Shown here piece by piece: positions 49,688 through 64,000 of a stretch of 64,000 nt of DNA (positions are counted from its first letter, which is position 1; each line of letters starts with the position of its first letter). Source of the DNA: a virus (Duplodnaviria; Caudoviricetes). The notes below the pieces were generated by a model. That model saw only the letters and a program-made list of their open reading frames with translations, was not told where the DNA came from and did no database searches. Location of the stretch: the IMG/VR virus record IMGVR_UViG_3300025437_000009; one strand, given 5' to 3'. The translations under genes were made by a program, and so were the position numbers.

Positions 49688-49951
49688 CTAATTTCCTTTT
49701 AATTTCCATATAATATGTTCTGTAGTTTCGTGATATCTGAACTCAACCACAGGTTCGCCTGGGCCTGTCCACATTGCTGTGCCTTCGTAGACAAACTGTA
49801 AAAATAACCAACGACCGGTTAAGGAACTACGTTTTGGTAACCATAAAAACTTTAATCGCCAATGGGCACGATTATAGAAAGCATCGTAAGTTTCATCCAT
49901 GCCTGTATATAAGCCTTGTGGAAACATTACTTGCCCCAGCCATTGCCCCAT
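49688..49951 (-). CDS. Hypothetical protein
   Basis: Trp-rich ORF; start uncertain. Confidence 0.55.
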   Translation of the reverse strand: MGQWLGQVMFPQGLYTGMDETYDAFYNRAHWRLKFLWLPKRSSLTGRWLFLQFVYEGTAMWTGPGEPVVEFRYHETTEHIIWKLKGN

Positions 49952-50787
49952 AGGTCCACATGCAATCTGGGACTATAATTAAATCCACGTTCGCAACAGA
50001 TATTGGCAATGTTTAGTTTATTTGATTCGTATGGATCAACAACACCACCCTGCGGCATTAAGTATACGGTACCTTTAAATCCACCTGCACGGAAAGCATC
50101 CACAGCACGTGTAGCTTCATTAACATGATCTTCAGTTTCAACAACAAACTTAAGATATACATGTCCATATGTTTGATAGATATTAACAATTAGTGGCTTA
50201 ATAGCATCATCCCACGATTCGCCTGATGCTGATAGTTTAGCACTGACTGAGAATGTAACTTCACGACCTGAACCAGCATCGGCCCAGTCAATCAAGTAAT
50301 CGCGGAAGTCTTCATGTAATTCTTGAGTACCATTTGTTTCAAACGTAATGTTCTTTAAGTCTGCCATACGTGGATGACTTAACAAATCAGCATAAGCACG
50401 TTGCCAGCCTAAAAGTGGCTCACCGCCAGTAATAACTAAATGTACATCATTGCCATTGTTCTGTACCCAACTACCGTTGGGAGTTAGGGCTAACATCTTG
50501 TCTACAAGTTCATCTGTAGTGTATGTTGGAGACAAATGTTTGAACGCAGGATGCCATGACGCATATGAATCACAGCCTGTTTCTACTAAAGGAAGATCTA
50601 AAAAATCTTTATACAGTTCTACCTTTTTAGCAACTTCATCTGCACCTGTAGACTTTTCACCAGGCTTACACCCAAACCCTGAACAGGTAAAGTTACATCC
50701 ATAAGTTCTTAAGAATACACTAGGTACTCCCACAAAGCGACCTTCGCCTTGTAGACTGTAAAATATTTCACTGACTTTAATCTTCAT
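49927..50787 (-). CDS. queE: 7-carboxy-7-deazaguanine synthase (radical SAM)
   Basis: SEIFYSLQGEG, VFLRTYGCNFTC, CDS, VITGGEPLL, ITFETNGT, SPRLHVDLWGN. Confidence 0.88.
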   Translation of the reverse strand: MKIKVSEIFYSLQGEGRFVGVPSVFLRTYGCNFTCSGFGCKPGEKSTGADEVAKKVELYKDFLDLPLVETGCDSYASWHPAFKHLSPTYTTDELVDKMLALTPNGSWVQNNGNDVHLVITGGEPLLGWQRAYADLLSHPRMADLKNITFETNGTQELHEDFRDYLIDWADAGSGREVTFSVSAKLSASGESWDDAIKPLIVNIYQTYGHVYLKFVVETEDHVNEATRAVDAFRAGGFKGTVYLMPQGGVVDPYESNKLNIANICCERGFNYSPRLHVDLWGNGWGK

Positions 50788-51033
50788 ATATTTTTGACCA
50801 TTCAACTAATTTTTGACTCTTACGCAACTGCGCCGCACGCAATTCTGCATCTGTATATACCTGATGTGCTTTGAGCAATTCTATTAATAGTGTAACATCT
50901 CCTAGCTCTTGAGTCAAGTGTTCTCTTTGGGTACCACCGTCTTTGTACCGATTTTCCATACCAAAGCGGCGGCATTTACTAATAGCCTGTATAACCTCAG
51001 CACACTCCTCTTGGAGTATGTCTAAGATTTCAT
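50777..51033 (-). CDS. MazG-like NTP pyrophosphohydrolase
   Basis: LQEECAEVIQAISK..RFG...L.QELGDV; a TAATG overlap with queD suggests start 51033. Confidence 0.75.
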
Positions 51034-51539
51034 TAACCTTCGAAGAGGTCTTCATTCCACTCACGATGTCCTTCACGGAACGCCATATTGCTTTGTGTTT
51101 CACGTACTTCTACACGATAACACCAAAGTCGATCAGCTTCTGCTTGACCCCACATGTCGGGAATATAAACTCCGTTTACAAACTTGTATAGTTGATCGGC
51201 TAGACCTTCACAACCTAGTTTAGGTAGGACGGTTAGTTTAGCTAGATTCTTTTCTTGCAATAATTTGTATGTTTCAAGCTCAGGATCATCCTCGGCTACT
51301 AATAATGTATGATCAAATTGACTTTCAAGAATGCCTTTGAGTTCTTTAAGACCGCCGTAGTCGGCAGCCCAATTACGCACATCTAGGTCATCTGTACCAA
51401 AGTAAAATTTCATACTAAACGAATAGCCGTGAATTAAGTTACAGTGACTATCAGCTCGCCATTGGCGATATGCACAGGGAAATGCATCGTGATACTCTTT
51501 AGTACTTGTGTACTTGTACTGCCTAGATTGGTTTGCCAT
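51033..51539 (-). CDS. queD: 6-carboxytetrahydropterin synthase (QueD/PTPS T-fold)
   Basis: SHCNLIHGY, DYGGLK, FDHTLLV, GCEGLA, VEVRET. Confidence 0.88.
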   Translation of the reverse strand: MANQSRQYKYTSTKEYHDAFPCAYRQWRADSHCNLIHGYSFSMKFYFGTDDLDVRNWAADYGGLKELKGILESQFDHTLLVAEDDPELETYKLLQEKNLAKLTVLPKLGCEGLADQLYKFVNGVYIPDMWGQAEADRLWCYRVEVRETQSNMAFREGHREWNEDLFEG

Positions 51540-51806: not shown

Positions 51807-52364
51807 TTAACGCCACCACTCTTCCCAGGGGAACACAGCCCACTGTGGTTCTTCATTTTTGTTAATACTTAGACCCATGTAATCCACATCTTTGAATTCA
51901 CTAGCTTCATTATTGATTAGTACAGCAAAGCGTACATTATTACCAAATACATTTGCCCAACGTGAATTATCTGGCAGACAACTTGATTGCCAATCTTTTC
52001 GAATCCAGTTAAGGGTAGCACCCGTGTCGTTGATGTCATCTACTATGAGAATATTTTTAGCATGTAGGCTAAAATCAAACGCACCATCTCCGCCTAAGGC
52101 TTTATAACTTCCATCAATCCAGCCAAATGCATCTTCGGCCATCCACAAGTTAGATTCTGGCCCAGCAAGGTCGTCGCGGAAACTTACTTTAAGTGTTTCC
52201 ATTGGTACATCTAAGTATTGACTCAGCATGTTAGCAGGAACTAGACCGCCACGTGTAAGACCTACAACGTAATCGGGCTTCCAACCATCGGCATTCATTG
52301 CACGAATAATTTCGTGTATCCAACCTTTAACAGTTGATTCTTTATAAAATACTTTTCTAGACAT
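51807..52364 (-). CDS. Type I phosphoribosyltransferase (purine PRTase-like)
   Basis: VVGLTRGGLVPA, ILIVDDINDTGATL, W.VFPWE. Confidence 0.88.
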   Translation of the reverse strand: MSRKVFYKESTVKGWIHEIIRAMNADGWKPDYVVGLTRGGLVPANMLSQYLDVPMETLKVSFRDDLAGPESNLWMAEDAFGWIDGSYKALGGDGAFDFSLHAKNILIVDDINDTGATLNWIRKDWQSSCLPDNSRWANVFGNNVRFAVLINNEASEFKDVDYMGLSINKNEEPQWAVFPWEEWWR

Positions 52365-54457: not shown

Positions 54458-55126
54458 ATGTTTTTAGATAACAAATATACTAAAGTTTATTACCAAATTA
54501 TTAATCGAGCATTAACACGACCATACAAAAAAGTAAAGAATGATGGATATCAAAAACATCATATTGTTCCAAAATGTATTGGAGGCACTGATTCTACTGA
54601 TAATCTTGTAATACTCAGTTATAAAGAACATAGAGTATGCCATTGTTTACTGATCAAAATGCAACTTACAAAATCAGCAGAAATCAAAATGCGACACGCC
54701 TACGGATTTTTTAATAAGAGTAGCAGATATAATGGGCCACGATATAAACGAGGGAAAGACAATATATTTTCTACTAAGGAAATCGTCGATCAAGTTCGTA
54801 AGCGTATGAAAGAAAACAATCCAATGAAGGATCCACTCTCTCAACAAAAAAGAGTCGATACCTGGAGAGCAAATAGAGCCGCACGAGATTACATTCCGCC
54901 GCGAGTCCTTAAGGACAAATTCATTACGCCAAGCGGCATTTTCAAAACCAAAAAAGAAATACAAAAAGTTGTAGGTATTCCAGAATGGACACTAAACACT
55001 ATCTACAACGATTTAGATGCTTACCCTGTTACAAACGGCAGGGCAAGCAAAAAAATCAATCACTTAAATATCGATCCAACAAAAACTTGGAGAGACAATG
55101 GGTTTGGATTACTTGCCGTTTCTTGA
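54458..55126 (+). mobile_element. Free-standing HNH homing endonuclease gene, antisense to folE
   Basis: KY...Y..II.RA...YQKHHIVPKCIGGTDSTDNLVILSYKEHRVCHCLL; TAAATA and an AGGA RBS upstream of ATG 54458. Confidence 0.85.
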
Positions 55127-55912
55127 TTGTAACGCAATATTGTCAAAGAATTCTTTTTTGGTAGCAGGATCTTTAAGGAATGCTCCGCGAAGAACAGTAG
55201 TTTGAGTCAAAGAGCTGTGTGCCATTATGCCCCTATTGGTGCAACAACCATGTTCACATTCTATATATACACCAATGTTATCGGAATCAGTGGCCTTGCT
55301 TATTTCACGTGCTATATCGTTACATAGCTCTTCTTGTAAAGTACCACGGCGAGCACACCATTGAGCAATGCGAGTATACTTGCTAAGACCAATAAGTTTG
55401 TTTGCGGCAATGATCCCAATATAAGCCACTCCACTAACTGGCTGATGATGATGGCTACACATACTACGAAGTTCAGAGCGTACAACCAACATACCCTCGT
55501 ATCTATCTTCACTGTCGTTTGGAAACGCTGTGGCGTCTGGTCTTGGTGCATATCTACCTTCCATAATTTCATTAAAATACATCTTGGCCAAGCGACGTGC
55601 TGTGCCTTGGCTATTTGGATCAGTTTCTCGATCGATTAATAGGGTATCTAGCACTTGCTCAAACGCTTCTGTAGCTTCATTAATAAGAATTTCTTTATCG
55701 CTTTCGCTTACATAATCACTGATATTGTCTCCAGCCCAGAAACGTTTCTTGTCACGCTTCATATTGAAACGGATAGCATCAGCAAGATTTGCTTCTTCAT
55801 ATCCTTTGTCGCTCATATTCATTGCGGCATCTTCATATCCAGGATGATATGGTGCTTCTTGTACTAGTAAATCTGCTATTTTTTGTTCTTCTGGTGATGC
55901 GTAGTTAGGCAT
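55109..55912 (-). CDS. folE: GTP cyclohydrolase I
   Basis: TARRLAKMY, SMCSHH, GLSKYTR, RGTLQEEL, EHGCCTNRG; start MPNYAS after a GGAG RBS. Confidence 0.95.
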   Translation of the reverse strand: MPNYASPEEQKIADLLVQEAPYHPGYEDAAMNMSDKGYEEANLADAIRFNMKRDKKRFWAGDNISDYVSESDKEILINEATEAFEQVLDTLLIDRETDPNSQGTARRLAKMYFNEIMEGRYAPRPDATAFPNDSEDRYEGMLVVRSELRSMCSHHHQPVSGVAYIGIIAANKLIGLSKYTRIAQWCARRGTLQEELCNDIAREISKATDSDNIGVYIECEHGCCTNRGIMAHSSLTQTTVLRGAFLKDPATKKEFFDNIALQSRNGK

Positions 55913-55952
55913 TCGTTTCTCCGAGTTAGTGTCGTGGATGACTTTATTGTAT

Positions 55953-55981
55953 ATTATAAGGTATTTAGATCTGTGTGTCAA
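55953..55981 (-). promoter_or_regulatory. sigma70-type promoter of folE
   Basis: Perfect TTGACA-N17-TATAAT. Confidence 0.85.
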
Positions 55982-56022
55982 ATATAATTAAATTTATTTG
56001 TCCATTAACGGTTAAATACAGA

Positions 56023-57102
56023 ATGAAACGAGCTGTACTCTGCGTACCCAATCCACAAGACTATATTGATCAATGCAACAATTATAGCATCATGATCATT
56101 AATCCTCAAGCACCTGTTGCTCGAAATCAATACCTATTGGCCAAAAGCGACTACAGTCTATTGATCACAGAACATGGTGTGGAAGAACGTGACGGGCAAG
56201 ACTACCCAAATGAACGTTTACTTTGGTATACTAGCGGAACTACAGGTGACAGTAAATTTTGCAGTTTTAGTCAGGAACAATTAGACATACTGGCACGTAA
56301 AATCTGCAACACTTATCAAATTACAGCCAATGATCGATATGTGAGTATTATGAGTCTATGGCACGCACACGGACAGGGCTTTTACTGGGCTACCCGACTA
56401 GCTGGTTGTGAAACTCATTTTTTATCAGTTGCAAATATTCGGCACATGCCAGAATTTGATCCCACATTTGTTACTGCTATACCCGATGTACTAAAGACTA
56501 TTGGACAGTTTGATTTTAAAAGCCTACGTTTCCTACGTGGTGCTAGTTCAGCTCTTCCTAATCAATTGTATCTTGATCTAAAACACAAATTTGGGGTTCC
56601 TGTAATAGAAGCATTTGGCATGACCGAAGCACTGAGTCACTGTTTTACTAACCCTTTAGATGGAGAACAGCGCATAGGTACTGTGGGACTACCAGATGGC
56701 ATAGAAGCTGATATAGTCGAAGGACGTTTATATATTAGTGGCGCTACTGTTTTTACTGATGGTTGGTACGATACCGGAGATCTAGCTGATAGAGATGAAC
56801 AAGGCTACTATCGTATACTAGGACGGCATCGTGATCAAATCAATGTTCGCGGGATTAAAGTAAATCCTATTAGTATTGAAAATCAATTAGTACACTCAAT
56901 TCCAACTATAGGTGACTGTGCAGTATTTGGCAGTGACAGTTTAAAGTGTATCTATACAGGAGATACTGATCCCGAGGTAGTTAGAAAATTTTTGATCAGT
57001 TTAGGACAACAATGCAAACCCATGCTACTACAACACGTGGCTCAAATACCAGTTAGTCCTTCGGGGAAGATTTCAAGGACTTGGCTCAATGGCCAATATT
57101 AA
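56023..57102 (+). CDS. Short ANL-family adenylating enzyme (acyl-CoA ligase-like)
   Basis: YTSGTTGDSK, EAFGMTE, YDTGDL, GR..D.I.VRG.KV.P..IE, C-terminal PSGKI. Confidence 0.88.
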   Translation: MKRAVLCVPNPQDYIDQCNNYSIMIINPQAPVARNQYLLAKSDYSLLITEHGVEERDGQDYPNERLLWYTSGTTGDSKFCSFSQEQLDILARKICNTYQITANDRYVSIMSLWHAHGQGFYWATRLAGCETHFLSVANIRHMPEFDPTFVTAIPDVLKTIGQFDFKSLRFLRGASSALPNQLYLDLKHKFGVPVIEAFGMTEALSHCFTNPLDGEQRIGTVGLPDGIEADIVEGRLYISGATVFTDGWYDTGDLADRDEQGYYRILGRHRDQINVRGIKVNPISIENQLVHSIPTIGDCAVFGSDSLKCIYTGDTDPEVVRKFLISLGQQCKPMLLQHVAQIPVSPSGKISRTWLNGQY

Positions 57103-57667
57103 GTAGTCTTAGATCGGGATACGGGTAGGCTTTTGGCGATTCTGCTACCTGTGGTAGTCGTTCTAAACCTAGTTGACAAGTTTCTAAAGTAGGACAATAG
57201 TGGTAACCTTGACTGAATGTCTTTTGATCTTGCCAAGGAGTGATACGTAAATCTCTACCATCACTACGCATACGACTCAATGCTTCATACGCAGTCGAAT
57301 CATCTAATAGTATAGCACCAGCTTTGCCTAGCTCTAGAGGTTTACCGTGACCAAAGCTCAGACATTGCATAGCACCCGGCCGATACATACCACGTTCTAG
57401 TCTACGGGCACTATCCCAGATGTTGGTTTTATAAAATTCATATTCACCCGTCCATTCGTCATCTGTTAGGCGATAATGAATGTTTAATTGATTCAACAGT
57501 TGGGGAATACTAAGATATGTCTGTGCGGGGAATTGGCAGTATCTGACTCGACGGTATCTAAAACACAGTTCAAGAGCATGAGTGCAACCATCAGTTGCCA
57601 CTGCATAGGGAGCACCGGTATATTCAGCTAGTGCAGATTCAAAGTCGAATAGTGTTTGGAAACTCAT
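57086..57667 (-). CDS. Compact DegT/DnrJ-like PLP aminotransferase
   Basis: FESALAEYTGAPYAVATDGCTHAL, IWDSA, SFGHGKPLELG..G; only 193 aa. Confidence 0.75.
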   Translation of the reverse strand: MSFQTLFDFESALAEYTGAPYAVATDGCTHALELCFRYRRVRYCQFPAQTYLSIPQLLNQLNIHYRLTDDEWTGEYEFYKTNIWDSARRLERGMYRPGAMQCLSFGHGKPLELGKAGAILLDDSTAYEALSRMRSDGRDLRITPWQDQKTFSQGYHYCPTLETCQLGLERLPQVAESPKAYPYPDLRLLNIGH

Positions 57668-58023
57668 TCTGATAGGTGATCTTTTTTGATTTCACGTACT
57701 GAGCACCCTAGTTTTTCTGCTATTAGATTTTTAAGTGCCACACGACGATTATTATGATCACGGATACTAATAGCACGACGTCCAATTTCTTCTAGACTTA
57801 ATTCAGCTTCTCGACCAGTTTTAAGTTCTGCTTCTAAATCCCAAATCTCATGGTGTATTTGTTTGAGTTGCTCGTATTCATCTACGATAAGACTAATGTC
57901 AATACGTAAGGCTTGATTCATGTACCATAACAATTCTTCTTCATTGGCTTTAGTACGTTTAAATTTTACTTCTGCAATAGCTAGTCTATCAACTAGTTCG
58001 ATAATAGGAAATACGGGGGTCAT
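57664..58023 (-). CDS. Hypothetical protein (DUF6165-like)
   Basis: ELVDRLAI..VK...IWDLE...A..IRD.N.RR..LK. Confidence 0.6.
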   Translation of the reverse strand: MTPVFPIIELVDRLAIAEVKFKRTKANEEELLWYMNQALRIDISLIVDEYEQLKQIHHEIWDLEAELKTGREAELSLEEIGRRAISIRDHNNRRVALKNLIAEKLGCSVREIKKDHLSE

Positions 58024-58026
58024 TGG

Positions 58027-58236
58027 TTATTGATCGTTTTCTGGCTGTCCGCCTGTACAAGATCCGCCTTCAAACCAAAGCCCTTGGGCTTCTTTTTGAT
58101 ATTGTGCTAGATCATATTCGTCTTTTTTACGCTTATACTCATCTTCAGTGAGAGCATGCCACCCACAGCACTTACCTATTGGGCTACGGCCGCAACCACA
58201 GCCACCAAAATTATCGTTACTTGTTCTTACTTGCAT
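58027..58236 (-). CDS. CDGSH-like Fe-S/Zn-binding small protein
   Basis: CGCGRSPIGKCCGWH resembles CxCx2Sx3PxCDGSH. Confidence 0.55.
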   Translation of the reverse strand: MQVRTSNDNFGGCGCGRSPIGKCCGWHALTEDEYKRKKDEYDLAQYQKEAQGLWFEGGSCTGGQPENDQ

Positions 58237-58456
58237 TTTTTAATTTCCAAATGGTTTCTTTAGCTTCTTGCAAATCTGTAAAAAGACTATCGTTTAGATT
58301 TTTAGCAACAGCTAGTTCTTCTCGAAGTTTTTGTTCACTATCTGTAATTTTTGGAGTTTCATTTTTGTCACTAACTCTACCAGCAACAAACCCGCAAAAA
58401 AGTGCAACAACAAATAATAATACGCTCATTGAGGTTTCTCCTTTAATCCTCGCCAT
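58217..58456 (-). CDS. Small membrane-anchored coiled-coil protein
   Basis: Hydrophobic N-terminus; true start probably MSVLLF. Confidence 0.6.
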   Translation of the reverse strand: MARIKGETSMSVLLFVVALFCGFVAGRVSDKNETPKITDSEQKLREELAVAKNLNDSLFTDLQEAKETIWKLKNASKNK

Positions 58457-58629
58457 TTTTCAATTTTTATTACTGTTTCCCAGCCCTTTTTCTTGGACCA
58501 AGTTTCTCTGTGCGGCCAAGGCCAATGTGCAGTCATTACATCATACTCGCCTTCGTTGACTGGATCGACGTCGCCAGGAAACCAATCGGTTAATAAGGAT
58601 TCAAGATCTTCGGTGGTAAAGGTTGTCAC
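58426..58629 (-). CDS. Hypothetical protein
   Basis: TDWFP...PV.EG.Y...W.....W....WRGL motif. Confidence 0.65.
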   Translation of the reverse strand: MTTFTTEDLESLLTDWFPGDVDPVNEGEYDVMTAHWPWPHRETWSKKKGWETVIKIEKWRGLKEKPQ

Positions 58630-58630
58630 A

Positions 58631-59836
58631 TTAATCCTCTAACTGAATAAATTCTTGTCTAAGTTCTTCCAGTGCGGCATTCATACCAGCAATAAACTCT
58701 TGTTTTTCGGTCTGGGTAATACAATATTTCTCACGATTGGCCTGACCTTCTTTGGTGTCTGGATCGTAATCAATAAATGAGAACTCGGTGCCATCACAAT
58801 CAGGGCAATGATCGTTATAATCGTCATCGGTCCTGCGTTCCTCACTCATACCTGTCCACCCACACTTTTTGTTGTCGCAGATGAGATCTGGCGGCTCAGG
58901 TGGTTGGTTGGCCCAGTTGCTAGTGTCCCAGTTGTATCCAGACCAGCGATCCACACTGGTGATAGGGTTGAACTTGCCAAATTCCCATTCACCAAAGTTG
59001 TTGCCATCCCAGTATAGGCTACCATGGGTAGTACCAAAATGACTCCATACAGCATTGTAATATCCTGGATATACCGGCTTGTGTTTGGCAAACTTAAAGG
59101 TGACAGACCTTTCCCAACTGGCCGGACTGGTGCCGTATTCTGGATGTCCCCAATCCTTCTCTCCGGGTTCATAGCGTTCAAAGTTGCCTTCGTCGTCAAT
59201 CATCCGTACCATATTAAACTCACTGCTCTTGCCGTCGGTTGAGCCGCCCCAATTGTCGATGTCTTCGCCATCATAGCTGATACCATGTACAATCTCTTCG
59301 TCGTCAAAGTCGGAAATATGTAAGGTTAATTTTTCAATATCAAATGGTGCTGTAAGTTCTAGTTCAGCTTCAAAGAATGTACCTTTTTCGTTTGAACTTC
59401 CTACAAACACAACTTCGCCTTTTTTGCGACTTCCAATCCAAACTTCATCATCGGTGTCGAGCTGTGCGCTATCATCACAGCCATCAAACTCTTCCAGACT
59501 TTTCTCAAGTACTGTATCACCGTTCTCATCTTCAATCTGTAAGGTGCCAGCATCACGACTAACACCGTGAACATGACCCATGCTGTCGCATTCGTACCAC
59601 GATCCTGGGTAGAACGGCAACTGGTCAGGATCAAGACCCATGTTTTCAGCGGCATCACTATCCCAAGCCAAATCGCTGAGATCTACTTGATGTTCCATGC
59701 AGTAATCCCATACCTTGGGATCCACTGTGCCCATGACCTTTTCGCCACCGTAGCCCCACATAGAGATTTTATAAGTACGTGGTGTAAATTTAAGAACTTC
59801 AATTAGTTGTTCTGCTGTGATATCTTTAGTTGCCAT
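58631..59836 (-). CDS. Acidic hypothetical protein with C-terminal Zn ribbon
   Basis: Very Asp/Glu-rich; CDNKKCGW...CPDC. Confidence 0.75.
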   Translation of the reverse strand: MATKDITAEQLIEVLKFTPRTYKISMWGYGGEKVMGTVDPKVWDYCMEHQVDLSDLAWDSDAAENMGLDPDQLPFYPGSWYECDSMGHVHGVSRDAGTLQIEDENGDTVLEKSLEEFDGCDDSAQLDTDDEVWIGSRKKGEVVFVGSSNEKGTFFEAELELTAPFDIEKLTLHISDFDDEEIVHGISYDGEDIDNWGGSTDGKSSEFNMVRMIDDEGNFERYEPGEKDWGHPEYGTSPASWERSVTFKFAKHKPVYPGYYNAVWSHFGTTHGSLYWDGNNFGEWEFGKFNPITSVDRWSGYNWDTSNWANQPPEPPDLICDNKKCGWTGMSEERRTDDDYNDHCPDCDGTEFSFIDYDPDTKEGQANREKYCITQTEKQEFIAGMNAALEELRQEFIQLED

Positions 59837-59841
59837 TTTTT

Positions 59842-60090
59842 TTACCTATTTAGAGTTGACCAAGTGAGCCATTCCTTAAAAGCATTATACACTTCTTTGA
59901 CTTCTTTGTCATCCTGTTCGAGTTTCACGCCACGTACATAAAAGCCATCTTCGGCTACACGTAGCATTTCGGTTTCTCCTGAACATAGAGTAATATCGTT
60001 TTTTGGAGAAGTGAATACAACAGGCTTGGTATTAACGGCATTAGCCTTAACCATATTTTGATACCAAACCGGGTCAGTATTTACGCTCAT
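59842..60090 (-). CDS. Hypothetical protein
   Basis: EMLRV..DGFYVRGVKL motif. Confidence 0.65.
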   Translation of the reverse strand: MSVNTDPVWYQNMVKANAVNTKPVVFTSPKNDITLCSGETEMLRVAEDGFYVRGVKLEQDDKEVKEVYNAFKEWLTWSTLNR

Positions 60091-60093
60091 ATG

Positions 60094-61191
60094 TTATTTT
60101 CCGAGATTAATTAATAACTTGTCGGCACTAAAGAACTCTTGAGTCAACATGTCTGTTTGTTTTTGTAAAATTGGTAGTAGCACATCGTATTCTTCCATAT
60201 ACTGTTTAATTTTATTGCAAAGGAAGGGTTTGTACACTTCATAAGAACTATAGCTGTCAGTCCATTCTGAAGGATATTTAAATGCATCAAGAGCCATTTC
60301 TTGATAGCTCAAACGATCAGGAACCAATGGAATAGCATCGACTAAACAGCCTTCATACCAACTAATACCTAGGGTTTCTTGAAGATTAGCTGAAAATACT
60401 ATTTTTGCTTGACCCAATAAGGTATGATATTGATCTTTGGTTAGCGTTTGGTCTTGACAAACAACAAATTCATATTGCGGTAAGTCACGTGCTAGGTCTC
60501 TAAAAATTTCTACTTGTTTTTCTGGAGCAATACGGTGTGGGAAAAGGATGAGATCTCGTTTGGCAATTCCCTTGTATGGAGCAAGCGTGTCCTGCATATA
60601 CTCCATAGGCCAGCCTGAACGCACAATCTTTTTGTTCATGAATAGTGATGCTTTATCTTCACTAGCCCAAGGATTTTCGCTTTTAACCCCATTCTCTAAC
60701 AGGTTATCAACAAACATATTGATGTGAAAGTCAGTAGCAAAATAGTTGTGATCAAACGAGTGAAAGAAACTCTTTTCAGCATGTCTAACCCAAGGTGCAT
60801 CGCCAATCAATCTACCTAAGAAATCTTGAGGATCATATGAGCCAGCATGCCATAGTCCGTGTGTAGTCACTAGAATGTTCAGCAACTCACTCATGTATTT
60901 TAAGTTGATGATACCAGGATGCCAAGCATCAGTAAAGATAAAATGATCGCCAGACTGAACTGCTCCGGCACAAAATAGACGACCCAACTGTTCCACTTGG
61001 TTAGCTTTGTATATATTAGTACCACCAAAGTTAAGGAAAGCACCAGGGGTAGTGGCACTGGGAATGTCTGTAGGTCCTGCAATAACTTGAACATCATGTC
61101 CTGCCTTTCGTAGAAGATCGGGTACATGGCTCTTCCACTGGCCAGTGTACCTAGTTTCAACACTTTCTAAATCAATTAAAAATACTGTCAT
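60094..61191 (-). CDS. GT-B-fold glycosyltransferase, possibly acting on DNA
   Basis: D.FIFTDAWHPG, HAGSYDP.DFLG, LFPHRIAPEKQ, FSANLQETLGISWYEG. Confidence 0.7.
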   Translation of the reverse strand: MTVFLIDLESVETRYTGQWKSHVPDLLRKAGHDVQVIAGPTDIPSATTPGAFLNFGGTNIYKANQVEQLGRLFCAGAVQSGDHFIFTDAWHPGIINLKYMSELLNILVTTHGLWHAGSYDPQDFLGRLIGDAPWVRHAEKSFFHSFDHNYFATDFHINMFVDNLLENGVKSENPWASEDKASLFMNKKIVRSGWPMEYMQDTLAPYKGIAKRDLILFPHRIAPEKQVEIFRDLARDLPQYEFVVCQDQTLTKDQYHTLLGQAKIVFSANLQETLGISWYEGCLVDAIPLVPDRLSYQEMALDAFKYPSEWTDSYSSYEVYKPFLCNKIKQYMEEYDVLLPILQKQTDMLTQEFFSADKLLINLGK

Positions 61192-61640
61192 TTTCCAATA
61201 GTAATAGTTGCTGGATTTAGTGTACTATCGTTTTCAACATCTGTCAAATTAAATGTAGTACTAGAGCTAGTGTATGGTCCAGATGGGATAGTGCCCCACG
61301 GACTACCTGGATTAGCATATGGGCTATAGGGACTGCCCGGACCTGGCATGTATGGATTTACTGTGGGAGGTATGTAAGAATTTCTCTGTCTAACTTCATT
61401 CTCCACATTTGCCAGTCTGGAACGAATGCTCTTTAAATCTTCCTGCATTTGACGTAGTGGACCGTGACTGGTTTCTACTGCCATACGTCCATCGTCTTGT
61501 GGGCGTGTTAGCTCAATAATAGTTAGCAATCCACGTAAGGCACTTTGTACACGTTCGTCCTTGCTGGTCATTGCTTCATCTAAATACGCAAACATGCGTT
61601 CTATTTCATAATCTGCTTGGGTTTTCTCTCGCATACTCAT
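61188..61640 (-). CDS. Hypothetical protein
   Basis: Coiled coil plus Pro-rich tail. Confidence 0.65.
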   Translation of the reverse strand: MSMREKTQADYEIERMFAYLDEAMTSKDERVQSALRGLLTIIELTRPQDDGRMAVETSHGPLRQMQEDLKSIRSRLANVENEVRQRNSYIPPTVNPYMPGPGSPYSPYANPGSPWGTIPSGPYTSSSTTFNLTDVENDSTLNPATITIGK

Positions 61641-61643
61641 GTG

Positions 61644-61781
61644 TTACTCTTTGTAAATTTGGAATAAACTTTGAAATGGAATACTGTAAACAGAAAATCT
61701 AATAGCACTGGTTAGTGTGCTAAAAGATTTTCTAATTTTGCGACCACTTGAAATGTAGTAGCTGACTGTATAATTAGTCAC
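61644..61781 (-). CDS. Possible small protein (45 aa, GTG start)
   Basis: Fills the gap and overlaps the upstream stop. Confidence 0.4.
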   Translation of the reverse strand: MTNYTVSYYISSGRKIRKSFSTLTSAIRFSVYSIPFQSLFQIYKE

Positions 61782-62037
61782 GTGGTTTCCAACTAGTATC
61801 GCGAGGTTTAAAATCCTTGCGATCACGTTTAGGAGTACGCCATTGATCCCAAGGTTCACGACCACGAACCATTTTCATGTATTCGCTATAAGGGCCACGA
61901 TCCTTATAAAGATCACGTTCGTCATATGAATAACCATAATCTCGACAGAATTGATGATATACTTCTAAATCATCAAAGATCTGCTTGACTTCGGGTTTCA
62001 TACGAAGATACTTGGTGAGCCATTCTGGTTTGGCCAT
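61774..62037 (-). CDS. Hypothetical protein
   Basis: AGGAG RBS. Confidence 0.7.
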   Translation of the reverse strand: MAKPEWLTKYLRMKPEVKQIFDDLEVYHQFCRDYGYSYDERDLYKDRGPYSEYMKMVRGREPWDQWRTPKRDRKDFKPRDTSWKPRD

Positions 62038-62049
62038 TTTACTACTCCT

Positions 62050-62493
62050 TTAAATTACGATTGATTGAGCAGGACGGGTGAGGTTATAATCAATTGAGCA
62101 TCCGTTTTCACCGTCCTCGGATACTTCAATTGTTACAGCACGATCAGGATAACGTGCAGCAATTTGTACATACAAGTCATCTGCCATCATCTCGCAGGAT
62201 TTCCAGTCGAGCGCCAGCACACCGTCTTGATACAGATTAACGAGCCAGCGTTTGAACTGGATGAATTCAATATCTCGGTCGTTGTGGAACACATCGATAG
62301 AAACACGGAAATGAAACATATGACGATGAGGGCTAGCCAAAAACGATACATCATATTCTCCTGCGGTATTCAAGTTGGGGTCTGTGGCTGCCGCTGGATA
62401 GCAGTGGATGCCTTCTTTTTCAAACGTGACCCAAATCTGTCGTTGGGCCGCGGCCATTATTCTATCTACTACTGCACGTTGTTCTTGATTCAT
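62050..62493 (-). CDS. QueD-like T-fold protein (DpdL-like)
   Basis: FLASPHRHMFHF (LxxxHRHxF), DRDIEFI, SCEMMA, VSEDGENG. Confidence 0.65.
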   Translation of the reverse strand: MNQEQRAVVDRIMAAAQRQIWVTFEKEGIHCYPAAATDPNLNTAGEYDVSFLASPHRHMFHFRVSIDVFHNDRDIEFIQFKRWLVNLYQDGVLALDWKSCEMMADDLYVQIAARYPDRAVTIEVSEDGENGCSIDYNLTRPAQSIVI

Positions 62494-62494
62494 G

Positions 62495-63073
62495 TTATTC
62501 AAAGTCAAAGAGTTTAAGAGAATCTCTCATAGAAGAGATGATGAGTATTTGCTTCATTGCTGTATTAGTGATACGATATCTGTAGGAGTTAGGATGATTA
62601 AACCCATCAAATACCGCCCACCTGTTACTACTAGTAATAGTTTTTGTACGCACACCTGCAACAAGTTGCCGGCGTAAATCTTCATAAGCATCTTTTAGTT
62701 TGCTTTGAATTTCTGGTAAGGCCATATCTACAATTTTTACATCGGCAACTTCTCTAAATACCGGATCCCATGTTACTTGATTTTGATTTTGTACCTTAGG
62801 ATAAAAACCGGTTTCTTCCCAAACAGGGGTAGCAATAATATCGGAAATGGTCATCGACCCAACGGTATGATTGGCATTACTGCCTTTCTTACGAGTCTTG
62901 TTATCAATGTTATATTCGGGCATGTCGACACGACCTTTGGAATCGATTGTGTGACCCTTACGCATCATTTCTGCGTCTACCCATTGTCCTACATCACAGT
63001 CATTACGTACTTCCGGTAATGGTGCAAGTTTTTCAATGTTATCTTTAATAACACTTACTCGGGCTTGTTTCAT
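62495..63073 (-). CDS. Hypothetical protein, possible PD-(D/E)xK nuclease
   Basis: G.WVD...VDMPEYNIDNKTRK; weak motif only. Confidence 0.55.
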   Translation of the reverse strand: MKQARVSVIKDNIEKLAPLPEVRNDCDVGQWVDAEMMRKGHTIDSKGRVDMPEYNIDNKTRKKGSNANHTVGSMTISDIIATPVWEETGFYPKVQNQNQVTWDPVFREVADVKIVDMALPEIQSKLKDAYEDLRRQLVAGVRTKTITSSNRWAVFDGFNHPNSYRYRITNTAMKQILIISSMRDSLKLFDFE

Positions 63074-63582
63074 TTGATTACTTCGTCTTTAGTGTACTTC
63101 GACCAATCCGTAAATACCTTACGGTCCCTTAATTCATGTAAACTGTGACACCAAATACCTGGGTTAGTAGCCGCATAGTCTTTGTCATCGAGCTTAATTG
63201 TAGCATTATATCCCAGCAGTTGTATATAGGGCAATTTCACCGAAATCATTGGGATAAAGTTATTGAATTCTGTCAATCGACCACTGGTTATCTGTTCTAC
63301 GTTAGCAACATCAAAGTCTAAGGTACATAACCAACCTGCTTCTAAGCAGTCAGTGATCATCATTTCCCAATCCTGCATTTCATCTGAGTCCATATCCGAC
63401 TGAGGAAAACTTTGATTAGCACCAAAATAAATGTGTGTGCAATTATTGTTTTTAGCTTCTTGCTGAATAATTTGACTGTCTTGAATACCAACCACAAACA
63501 GAGTTTGATGCCCAAATGCTGGTGAGTGTTCAACTTCTGTGCCAGTAAAAAATTCTATTTCATCGTGCCCAGGTCTATCCAT
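63070..63582 (-). CDS. Hypothetical protein in the deazaguanine neighbourhood
   Basis: FTGTEVEH.P..G..TLFVVG, CTHIYFGANQSF, D..ATNPG.WCH. Confidence 0.7.
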   Translation of the reverse strand: MDRPGHDEIEFFTGTEVEHSPAFGHQTLFVVGIQDSQIIQQEAKNNNCTHIYFGANQSFPQSDMDSDEMQDWEMMITDCLEAGWLCTLDFDVANVEQITSGRLTEFNNFIPMISVKLPYIQLLGYNATIKLDDKDYAATNPGIWCHSLHELRDRKVFTDWSKYTKDEVIK

Positions 63583-63772
63583 TTGCTTTTTGCTCTCTAA
63601 ATTCTAATTCAGATTTAAGTTTAACAATATTATCTTTAATATGCAACCTTTGTTGTTTCAATTTATGTAGATGCTCGTCATTAAATTTGCCTGTAGATTC
63701 CATGCCATCAATCTTTTTATCGATCTCTGCGTGTTCTTTTTCTAAATGTGCAATACGTCCTAAGAGTGTCAT
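63575..63772 (-). CDS. DUF465/YdcH-like small coiled-coil protein
   Basis: L.KEH.EIDKKI...L..LK..RL.IKD.I. Confidence 0.7.
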   Translation of the reverse strand: MTLLGRIAHLEKEHAEIDKKIDGMESTGKFNDEHLHKLKQQRLHIKDNIVKLKSELEFREQKANG

Positions 63773-63999
63773 TCTTCCCCCAAATGATCAAGTTTAGTTT
63801 CATCAAATCCAGAATCATCAATATGATGTTCTTCTTCCTCGTCTACTTCGCCTTCTACTACAAATAACTGGTCAAACATAGCGGAACCATTAATGGCTTT
63901 TGTACCTTTATTTCCACGGGTACCAATGATTTCAGTCCAGTACTTACTGTAGCCATCAACAATCTCCATACTTTTTTCTTTAGTGGGTGCTGCAAAGAT
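63769..63999 (-). CDS. 3' end of a gene starting beyond the window; possibly DpdA/TGT-like
   Basis: Frame is open to the window edge (IFAAPTKEKSMEIVDGYSKYW.EIIGTRG..G...F..LF, acidic tail). Identity inferred from neighbourhood and recollection only. Confidence 0.4.
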   Translation of the reverse strand: MFAAPTKEKSMEIVDGYSKYWTEIIGTRGNKGTKAINGSAMFDQLFVVEGEVDEEEEHHIDDSGFDETKLDHLGEE

Positions 64000-64000
64000 A

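Follow-up and report, generated by a model that had tools for sequence, protein, structure and literature searches.

A glycosyltransferase linked to DpdL-type 7-deazaguanine genes in freshwater phage DNA suggests a glycosylated deazaguanine

Why would a phage that encodes a 7-deazaguanine DNA-modification pathway also carry a glycosyltransferase (GT) gene among the genes of this pathway? The question is raised by a 64,000-nucleotide stretch of viral DNA (Duplodnaviria; Caudoviricetes; IMG/VR record IMGVR_UViG_3300025437_000009), hereafter the window, which belongs to a large freshwater T4-like phage. An earlier note on this DNA placed a GT-B glycosyltransferase at positions 60094-62493, beside a DpdL-like gene, and proposed a glycosylated deazaguanine. 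A gene with a GT-B fold model is indeed present, but this span holds four minus-strand genes (GT, p150, p87, and DpdL-like), bounded by the GT stop codon and the ATG of the DpdL-like gene, and the GT occupies only 60094-61191. What is new here is a known 7-deazaguanine DNA-modification pathway with an added glycosyltransferase. The GT is very probably a functional part of this pathway, and we slightly favor the presence of a sugar-bearing deazaguanine in the virion DNA.

The GT had no match in PHROGs, NCBIfam, or Pfam (in Pfam not even at E ≤ 5), and a phmmer search against PDB sequences returned nothing at E ≤ 10. Its AlphaFold model, built with 45 diverse homologs, reached a predicted local distance difference test score (pLDDT) of 94 and a predicted template modeling score (pTM) of 0.91, with a clear GT-B fold of two Rossmann-like domains. 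Foldseek gave 417 PDB matches at E ≤ 0.001, with BshA, glycogen synthase, GlgM, and MshA at the top, and UDP-glucose:tetrahydrobiopterin glucosyltransferase at ranks 21 and 31. Compared with BshA and MshA, which act in bacillithiol and mycothiol synthesis, the window GT is viral and shares only ~10% sequence identity. In the GT alignment, where the mean column identity was 34%, E280 was invariant and E272, R220, K225, and H115 were at least 90% conserved. The donor-site residues form an R-x4-K and E-x7-E pattern (R220/K225; E272/E280, 8 residues apart), which we take, by comparison with MshA, to be that of the retaining GT-B class. Because of the GT-B fold and these conserved donor-site residues, the GT looks catalytically competent, and the model leads us to expect an alpha-linked glycoside made from a nucleotide sugar. 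The N-terminal acceptor domain is distinct and strongly conserved.

Some of the Atlas clusters neighboring the GT carried PF00534, in 29-92% of their members. Since only some of them did so and the GT itself had no Pfam match, we regard it as a divergent relative and not as a recognized member of Glycos_transf_1 or Glyco_trans_4. The family is large: it comprises at least 8000 clusters when grouped at 90% identity, there are 1076 representatives at the 50% level, and its Atlas clusters are at least 95% viral. As the earlier note had stated, the GT is unrelated to the other GTs of the window: when all window open reading frames (ORFs) of at least 80 aa were searched with phmmer and the family hidden Markov model at E ≤ 10, only the GT itself was found.

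The neighbors named in that note (DpdL-like, DUF465, and a putative dpdA) were borne out by motif, PF04325, and tRNA-guanine transglycosylase (TGT) fold evidence, respectively. The T-fold protein encoded upstream of the GT matched phrog_17812 (E 2e-34) and contains the motif LASPHRHMF at residue 57 of its 152-aa reading, that is, LxxxHRHxF in place of CxxxHGH. The LxxxHRHxF signature defines DpdL in Cui et al. (PMC10516641). By tblastn, the protein was 57% identical to the DpdL region of Acidovorax phage ACP17 and 33% identical (E 4e-9) to that of Cellulophaga phage phiST (gp040). The DpdL proteins of these two phages are predicted to be 7-carboxy-7-deazaguanine (CDG) decarboxylases that yield unsubstituted 7-deazaguanine (PMC10516641), and from its homology the window protein is likewise predicted to be DpdL, a CDG decarboxylase. 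This homology leaves the hydroxyl-bearing deazapurine of the earlier note, which was to arise by aldolase-type chemistry of a QueD-like enzyme, without support.

The DpdA-like gene runs past the window edge. Metagenome contig L003 carries an identical region and supplies the context beyond the edge, including the whole gene, which encodes a 543-aa protein. This protein keeps the motifs DSGG-x-Q (D103-Q108) and F300-D301-C-A-S-P305, with all of these residues invariant except F300 (at least 90%). Its model (pLDDT 87) matched tRNA-guanine transglycosylases in all of the top 50 PDB matches (E ~1e-6, TM score ~0.5 by target), and a profile search of PDB sequences matched only TGT, weakly; there was no Pfam TGT match. 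Judged by this model, the 543-aa protein is a DpdA-like enzyme of the TGT superfamily. Its tblastn matches were confined to proteins of PA5oct-like phages, of Sinorhizobium phage Phosso, and of one Vibrio phage, and none of these is annotated as DpdA of any subfamily (DpdA1-4). A complex prediction of the GT with the DpdA-like protein scored 0.00 and, as it was made without control runs, counts neither for nor against binding.

The enzymes that would supply the deazaguanine are encoded further along the window (Table 1). The FolE and QueD assignments are clear, and that of QueE is supported mainly by homology to an annotated phage QueE. The search for QueC was made in a 345-kb, 94%-complete relative of the window phage, where no full-length QueC was found and only partial PP-loop matches appeared (G001:C1:277130-277312 and 249789-249980, inside 409-aa and 390-aa frames). 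The latter are probably other PP-loop ATPases and not QueC. Because FolE, QueD, QueE, DpdL, and a DpdA-like protein are present and a full-length QueC is missing from this relative, we assign the window pathway to the QueC-less DpdL type. No ThyA-family hydroxymethylase was found in the same relative, and to judge by gene content a pathway to a hydroxymethyl-pyrimidine acceptor is not in sight. A search for Tet/JBP proteins in the relatives gave no match, but the positive control was silent too.

The window also encodes a purine-type phosphoribosyltransferase (PRTase), which could recycle the guanine freed by the transglycosylase or make a deazaguanine nucleotide. A PRTase gene beside QueE was also seen in the PA5oct-like phage PAC2, and a PRTase accompanies the pathway in PA5oct-like phages (L002:10330-10764).

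The linkage of the GT was analyzed in 232 loci from viral contigs, fetched with the window GT and two representatives 34-41% identical to it as seeds and then searched with iterated profiles. The window GT or the GT alignment as seed gave only close relatives, and the distant representatives were needed. Once dereplicated at 60% GT identity and filtered for flanks of at least 4.5 kb on either side, the set comprised 38 loci. DpdL lay near the GT in 37 of these (36 within 2 kb, 13 within 300 bp), a DpdA-type gene in 33 (21 within 300 bp), QueE in 34, FolE in 31, and QueD in 26. The PRTase counts were discarded, as the PRTase profile drifted onto FolE-containing ORFs. The sole locus without DpdL was that of Xanthomonas phage PhiXhv-15, which carries a remote GT relative. 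Genomic linkage of the GT family to dpdA and dpdL, which the earlier note had put forward as a check, is thus strongly positive. An occurrence independent of dpd genes, which that note named as a refutation, was not seen for this subfamily, and only the 26%-identity relative was found apart from dpd genes.

The replication genes of the 38 loci differed: 27 had a family-A polymerase (with DnaB and DnaN), 5 a family-B polymerase, and the two polymerase types never occurred together. Where the GT lies with respect to DpdL varied as well. Given these unrelated backbones and varying positions, the GT-DpdL pair is a travelling module and not the result of frozen synteny. The GT distances correlated with those of DpdL, QueE, and FolE (Mantel r 0.31-0.41, p ~0.002 or less). 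In two more representatives from other data sources (31% and 38% identical to the window GT), DpdL immediately precedes the GT, and a DpdA-type gene lies in the vicinity. In a reverse sample of 80 contigs similar to the DpdL of a GT-less phage, the GT was present in 54 of the 56 with enough flank; these contigs are not independent, because they come mostly from one freshwater lineage. The DpdL of phiST, used as a query, found no relatives in viral contigs.

These data bear on an alternative in which the GT target is unrelated to deazaguanine (e.g., a different base in DNA, a protein of the phage or its host, or a glycan of the host envelope) and DpdL is its neighbor as early or replication cargo. 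The GT fold does not identify the acceptor, and the PhiXhv-15 relative, which has GlmS and a deacetylase as neighbors but lacks dpd genes, implies that the wider superfamily has other jobs. We nevertheless consider this alternative improbable, since the GT-DpdL pairing survives unrelated replication modules and varying gene order, the GT, DpdL, QueE, and FolE distances are correlated, and the 94%-complete relative lacks a ThyA-family hydroxymethylase. The role of a T4-like glucosyltransferase acting on 5-hydroxymethylcytosine (hmC) was set aside because this most complete relative lacks the hydroxymethylase and because no homology to the T4 enzymes was seen.

Cultured phages gave the same picture of a GT tied to DpdL. 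tblastn with the GT matched 22 records, 17 strongly and 5 weakly. The strong carriers include Phosso, eleven PA5oct-like Pseudomonas phages, ACP17, Xanthomonas phages X1 and BUDD, and Burkholderia phage BCSR5. All 17 strong records contain DpdL at 0 to 2.8 kb from the GT, and the two genes are adjacent in Phosso, the PA5oct-like phages, and ACP17. The gene order is DpdA-like, GT, DpdL, QueE in ACP17; FolE ... GT, TGT, DpdL, QueE in X1; DpdA-like, GT, DpdL ... PRTase, QueE in the PA5oct-like phages; and DpdL, GT ... FolE ... QueE in Phosso. The other five matches, at 26% identity, came from jumbo phages of Xanthomonas and Erwinia; they lie beside GlmS and a deacetylase, without DpdL, and mark the boundary of the DpdL-linked subfamily. 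In PhiXhv-15 (L088, PV764602.1 98820-113560), the remote GT is accompanied by GlmS and a BshB-like GlcNAc-malate deacetylase, so that GT and deacetylase resemble a BshA/BshB pair.

DpdL also occurs without the GT. About six lineages of cultured DpdL phages have the GT and eight do not, and GT-associated and GT-less DpdL proteins are closely related. Rhizobium phage RHph_I1_18, for example, has a DpdL 60% identical to that of the window and no GT. From these distributions, the GT looks like an optional add-on step of the DpdL-type pathway: it comes and goes while the other parts of the pathway stay constant, and it is practically never found without DpdL.

Among the closest known systems is the GT-less one of phiST, which encodes FolE, QueD, QueE, MazG, DpdL, a kinase-like ATPase, and DpdA3, and whose DNA contains plain 2'-deoxy-7-deazaguanosine (dDG) in place of all G (PMC10516641). 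The two systems share FolE, QueD, QueE, a DpdL with the LxxxHRHxF signature, a TGT-superfamily transglycosylase, the lack of QueC, and a location beside a DNA polymerase. They differ in that the window has a GT placed between DpdL and the other pathway genes, and in that its 543-aa transglycosylase does not match phiST at the sequence level. Because phiST has dDG and no GT, the GT is not needed to make or insert 7-deazaguanine.

The phiST system also counts against the idea that the GT is a catalytically silent scaffold, which would aid DpdA or DpdL (e.g., by handing over the base) without transferring a sugar. Such a role could be read into the finding that DpdL and DpdA of ACP17 gave no dDG in Escherichia coli, so that other enzymes may be needed (PMC10516641), as the GT gene of ACP17 is located between these two genes. 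A silent protein would, however, hardly keep the donor-site residues of a retaining GT-B enzyme invariant or nearly so at a mean column identity of 34%, and we regard the scaffold as highly improbable.

We return to a GT that acts as an enzyme of the deazaguanine pathway. In the proposed sequence of steps, FolE, QueD, and QueE would convert GTP to CDG, DpdL would remove the carboxyl group to leave 7-deazaguanine, and the TGT-fold DpdA-like enzyme would exchange guanine in the phage DNA for this base. The GT would add a sugar to deazaguanine, either as the free base before insertion or when it is already in DNA, and the virion DNA would then contain glycosylated 7-deazaguanine rather than plain dDG. 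We consider it equally plausible that the enzyme acts on the free base or a nucleotide, ahead of insertion, and that it acts on DNA. The analysis shows the fold, the conserved donor-site residues, the operon membership, and a near-obligate linkage to DpdL and DpdA across unrelated phage backbones; the acceptor, the glycosylated atom, the sugar, and the level (base or DNA) at which the enzyme acts are inferred. The simplest reading is a further decoration of the DpdL product, parallel to the glucosylation of hmC in T-even phages and to the mannosylation and galactosylation of tRNA queuosine.

Both parallels have limits. Like the window GT, the alpha- and beta-glucosyltransferases of T4 are phage-encoded GT-B enzymes beside DNA-modification and replication genes, and the expected shared role would be to place a bulky sugar on a modified base as protection against host nucleases. 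The comparison with T-even enzymes drawn in the earlier note is one of function; it does not extend to structure, as the nearest folds are of the retaining GT4 type and not those of the T4 enzymes. The PDB sequence search showed no similarity to the latter either, and the acceptor in the window phage would be a purine analog without a hydroxymethyl group. Among structural matches in the viral library, a cyanophage 'DNA alpha-GT' appeared only at rank 44 (TM score 0.53). QTMAN and QTGAL, which act on animal tRNA queuosine, provide the only known sugar on a 7-deazaguanine derivative in nucleic acid (PMC12518689). They differ from the proposed enzyme in their tRNA substrate and in placing the sugar on a cyclopentenediol hydroxyl, which the DpdL product lacks.

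Several observations weigh against a glycosylated deazaguanine in DNA. As 7-deazaguanine lacks a hydroxyl group, the sugar would have to be attached to N2, O6, a ring carbon, or a group introduced by another enzyme. Retaining GT4-type enzymes are known for O-, S-, and Se-glycosylation and are not known to perform C- or N-glycosylation. The window's clade has neither a second radical S-adenosylmethionine (SAM) enzyme nor an obvious hydroxylating partner beside the GT, and only p87 and p170 as conserved proteins without an assigned function. The GT is acidic (pI 5.3), as is most of its family; its nearest folds (BshA, MshA, and LmbT) are GT4-type enzymes with small-molecule acceptors, and the T4 alpha- and beta-GT fall outside its 50 best structural neighbors. 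This acidity and these small-acceptor folds make us lean towards a free base or nucleotide as acceptor over DNA. Our literature search found no chemical analysis of the DNA of the GT carriers ACP17 and PA5oct and no report of a sugar on deazaguanine in DNA. In addition, the decarboxylase activity of DpdL is itself only predicted, and its reconstitution failed (PMC10516641).

The acidic pI and the small-acceptor folds, which include the tetrahydrobiopterin glucosyltransferase, would suit a GT that acts on a soluble intermediate or by-product (7-deazaguanine, CDG, a deazaguanine nucleotide, or a FolE-derived pterin) and whose glycoside is not in DNA. This glycoside might serve as a short-lived, protected intermediate, be a form for storage or detoxification, or be a pterin glycoside like those of cyanobacteria. 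Base-to-nucleotide chemistry is available in the cluster, as the PRTase shows, and FolE with a PTPS-like T-fold enzyme performs the first two steps towards pterin glycosides. The pterin GT, however, matched no better than dozens of other GT4 enzymes, the GT is linked to DpdA-type genes (33/38, 21 within 300 bp) and QueE (34/38) as tightly as to the T-fold gene, it resides in replication operons, and it is not evident what a phage would gain from a soluble glycoside. We thus consider a purely soluble product unlikely. A pterin glycoside role was set aside in view of the links to QueE and DpdA.

If the glycoside is in DNA, its sugar may be attached in an unusual way. In one version, guanine would be replaced in the virion DNA of the window clade, PA5oct, ACP17, Phosso, and X1 by deazaguanine carrying the sugar directly on the ring (e.g., as a C7 C-glycoside) or on the exocyclic N2, installed by the retaining GT4-like enzyme. 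We hold this version to be doubtful. Natural products of the huimycin and dapiramicin type, preQ0 N-glycosides of actinomycetes, are an earlier example of glycosylation at the exocyclic N2 of a 7-deazaguanine. They differ from the window case in being soluble compounds derived from preQ0, made without DpdA and DNA.

In other lineages, a further enzyme might provide a handle. A second radical SAM enzyme occurs beside the GT in 27 of the 38 lineages and is either of the B12 type (PhpK/HpnJ-like, far below cut-off) or of the SPASM type. Examples are a 452-aa B12-type protein (L207:8643-9998) and a 315-aa radical SAM/SPASM protein (L181:10193-11137); these enzymes are found in family-A-polymerase phages, often between DpdL and GT. 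This second enzyme hints at extra chemistry; it may equip the deazaguanine or the sugar with a carbon or another handle. The window's clade, a very abundant freshwater T4-like group, has a minimal gene set without an extra radical SAM enzyme or an oxygenase.

The DNA of PA5oct resists restriction enzymes with G-containing sites; the chemistry of the modification was not established in that work (PMC12191111). This resistance is independent evidence of a modified G in PA5oct. If deazaguanine is indeed glycosylated in these phages, the sugar would probably explain PA5oct-type restriction resistance and sensing by modification-dependent nucleases, would probably bear on how such phages are sequenced, cloned, and used in therapy, and would probably offer a new enzyme for labeling purine analogs in DNA. 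The sugar-bearing DNA bases that we know of are all pyrimidines (glucosyl-hmC, base J, and arabinosyl-hmC), and the deazaguanine DNA bases known to us carry small groups only. A glycosylated deazaguanine would therefore be a new class of natural DNA base. With the sugar on the ring or on N2, it would rank as the first purine with a sugar in any DNA and would imply a new reaction type for the GT4-like class. Much environmental phage DNA could be affected, because the GT family is very large and dominates freshwater phage contigs. Several carriers (PA5oct, ACP17, Phosso, and X1) are in culture, which makes the question directly testable.

The positions of the window genes are given in Table 1.

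Table 1. Genes of the deazaguanine region in the window and their neighbors
Gene or product	Position	Strand	Remarks
QueE-like radical SAM, 7-carboxy-7-deazaguanine synthase	49927-50805	-	Weak PF04055; 34% identical (E 4e-47) to annotated X1 QueE
QueD, 6-carboxytetrahydropterin synthase (PTPS)	51033-51539	-	PF01242, E 2e-13; 54% identical to ACP17 QueD
Purine-type PRTase	51807-52364	-	PF00156, E 7e-16
FolE, GTP cyclohydrolase I, first deazaguanine step	55109-55981	-	PF01227, E 9e-39
p401, acidic, C-terminal CxxC...CxxC zinc-ribbon-like motif	58631-59836	-	Two genes downstream of GT; only 16 loci
p82, small protein	59842-60090	-	Directly downstream of GT; only 3 loci
GT, 365 aa	60094-61191	-	GT-B fold (model), retaining GT4-like; viral subfamily linked to DpdL and DpdA
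p150, 150 aa, function not assigned	61188-61640	-	ATGA overlap with GT start; no Pfam, PHROGs, or NCBIfam match
p87, small basic protein	61774-62037	-	Between DpdL and GT; no family match
DpdL-like T-fold	62050-62493	-	147 aa from ATG; 152 aa from upstream TTG at 62508
p192	62495-63073	-	Variable, 14 loci
p170	63070-63582	-	Kept beside DpdA-type gene
DUF465 small coiled-coil protein	63575-63772	-	PF04325 on identical gene of contig L003
DpdA-like TGT-fold, last 76 codons of 543 aa	63769-64000	-	Runs past window edge; whole gene L003:5792-7423

On contig L003, the genes follow each other in the direction of transcription as family-B DNA polymerase, methyltransferase, a 244-aa clamp-like protein, a sulfotransferase-like protein, the 543-aa protein, DUF465, p170, p192, the T-fold gene, p87, p150, GT, p82, p401, four small genes, a half-size DegT-like gene, an oppositely oriented AMP-binding enzyme, and folE. 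The polymerase, clamp, DpdA-like, DpdL, GT, and FolE genes are all on the same strand. The ATGA overlap at the GT start suggests that p150 is translationally coupled to the GT. The GT protein occurs identically on contigs of up to 290 kb, and a megablast search of 57000-64000 against cultured phages gave no match.

The small proteins around the GT (p150, p87, p82, p170, p192, and p401) gave nothing usable in Pfam, PHROGs, or NCBIfam, and the only match within the four-gene span was that of DpdL to phrog_17812. p150 is poorly conserved (8/232 loci), and p87 is kept in 128 of 139 close loci and in 9 of 25 loci of a second clade. p170 is present in 127 of the 139 close loci and has a homolog in the same position in ACP17 (27% identical, E 1e-11). 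Because of this position and its conservation beside the DpdA-type gene, we consider p170 a candidate for a further pathway component; an Atlas search with it gave sub-threshold leads only.

A class I methyltransferase (L003:3431-4366) and a sulfotransferase-like protein (L003:5149-5781; PF03567, E 3e-5) are encoded just past the window's end, between the polymerase, clamp, and DpdA-like genes. With only 7 and 2 occurrences, respectively, among the fetched loci, they appear to be variable cargo and not part of the core pathway. Between the GT block and folE (window 55975-57667), an AMP-binding (adenylate-forming) enzyme of 375 aa is encoded on the plus strand; its gene overlaps the end of a minus-strand gene for a 193-aa, half-size DegT/DnrJ/EryC1-like protein. 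A role in sugar or acyl tailoring is possible.

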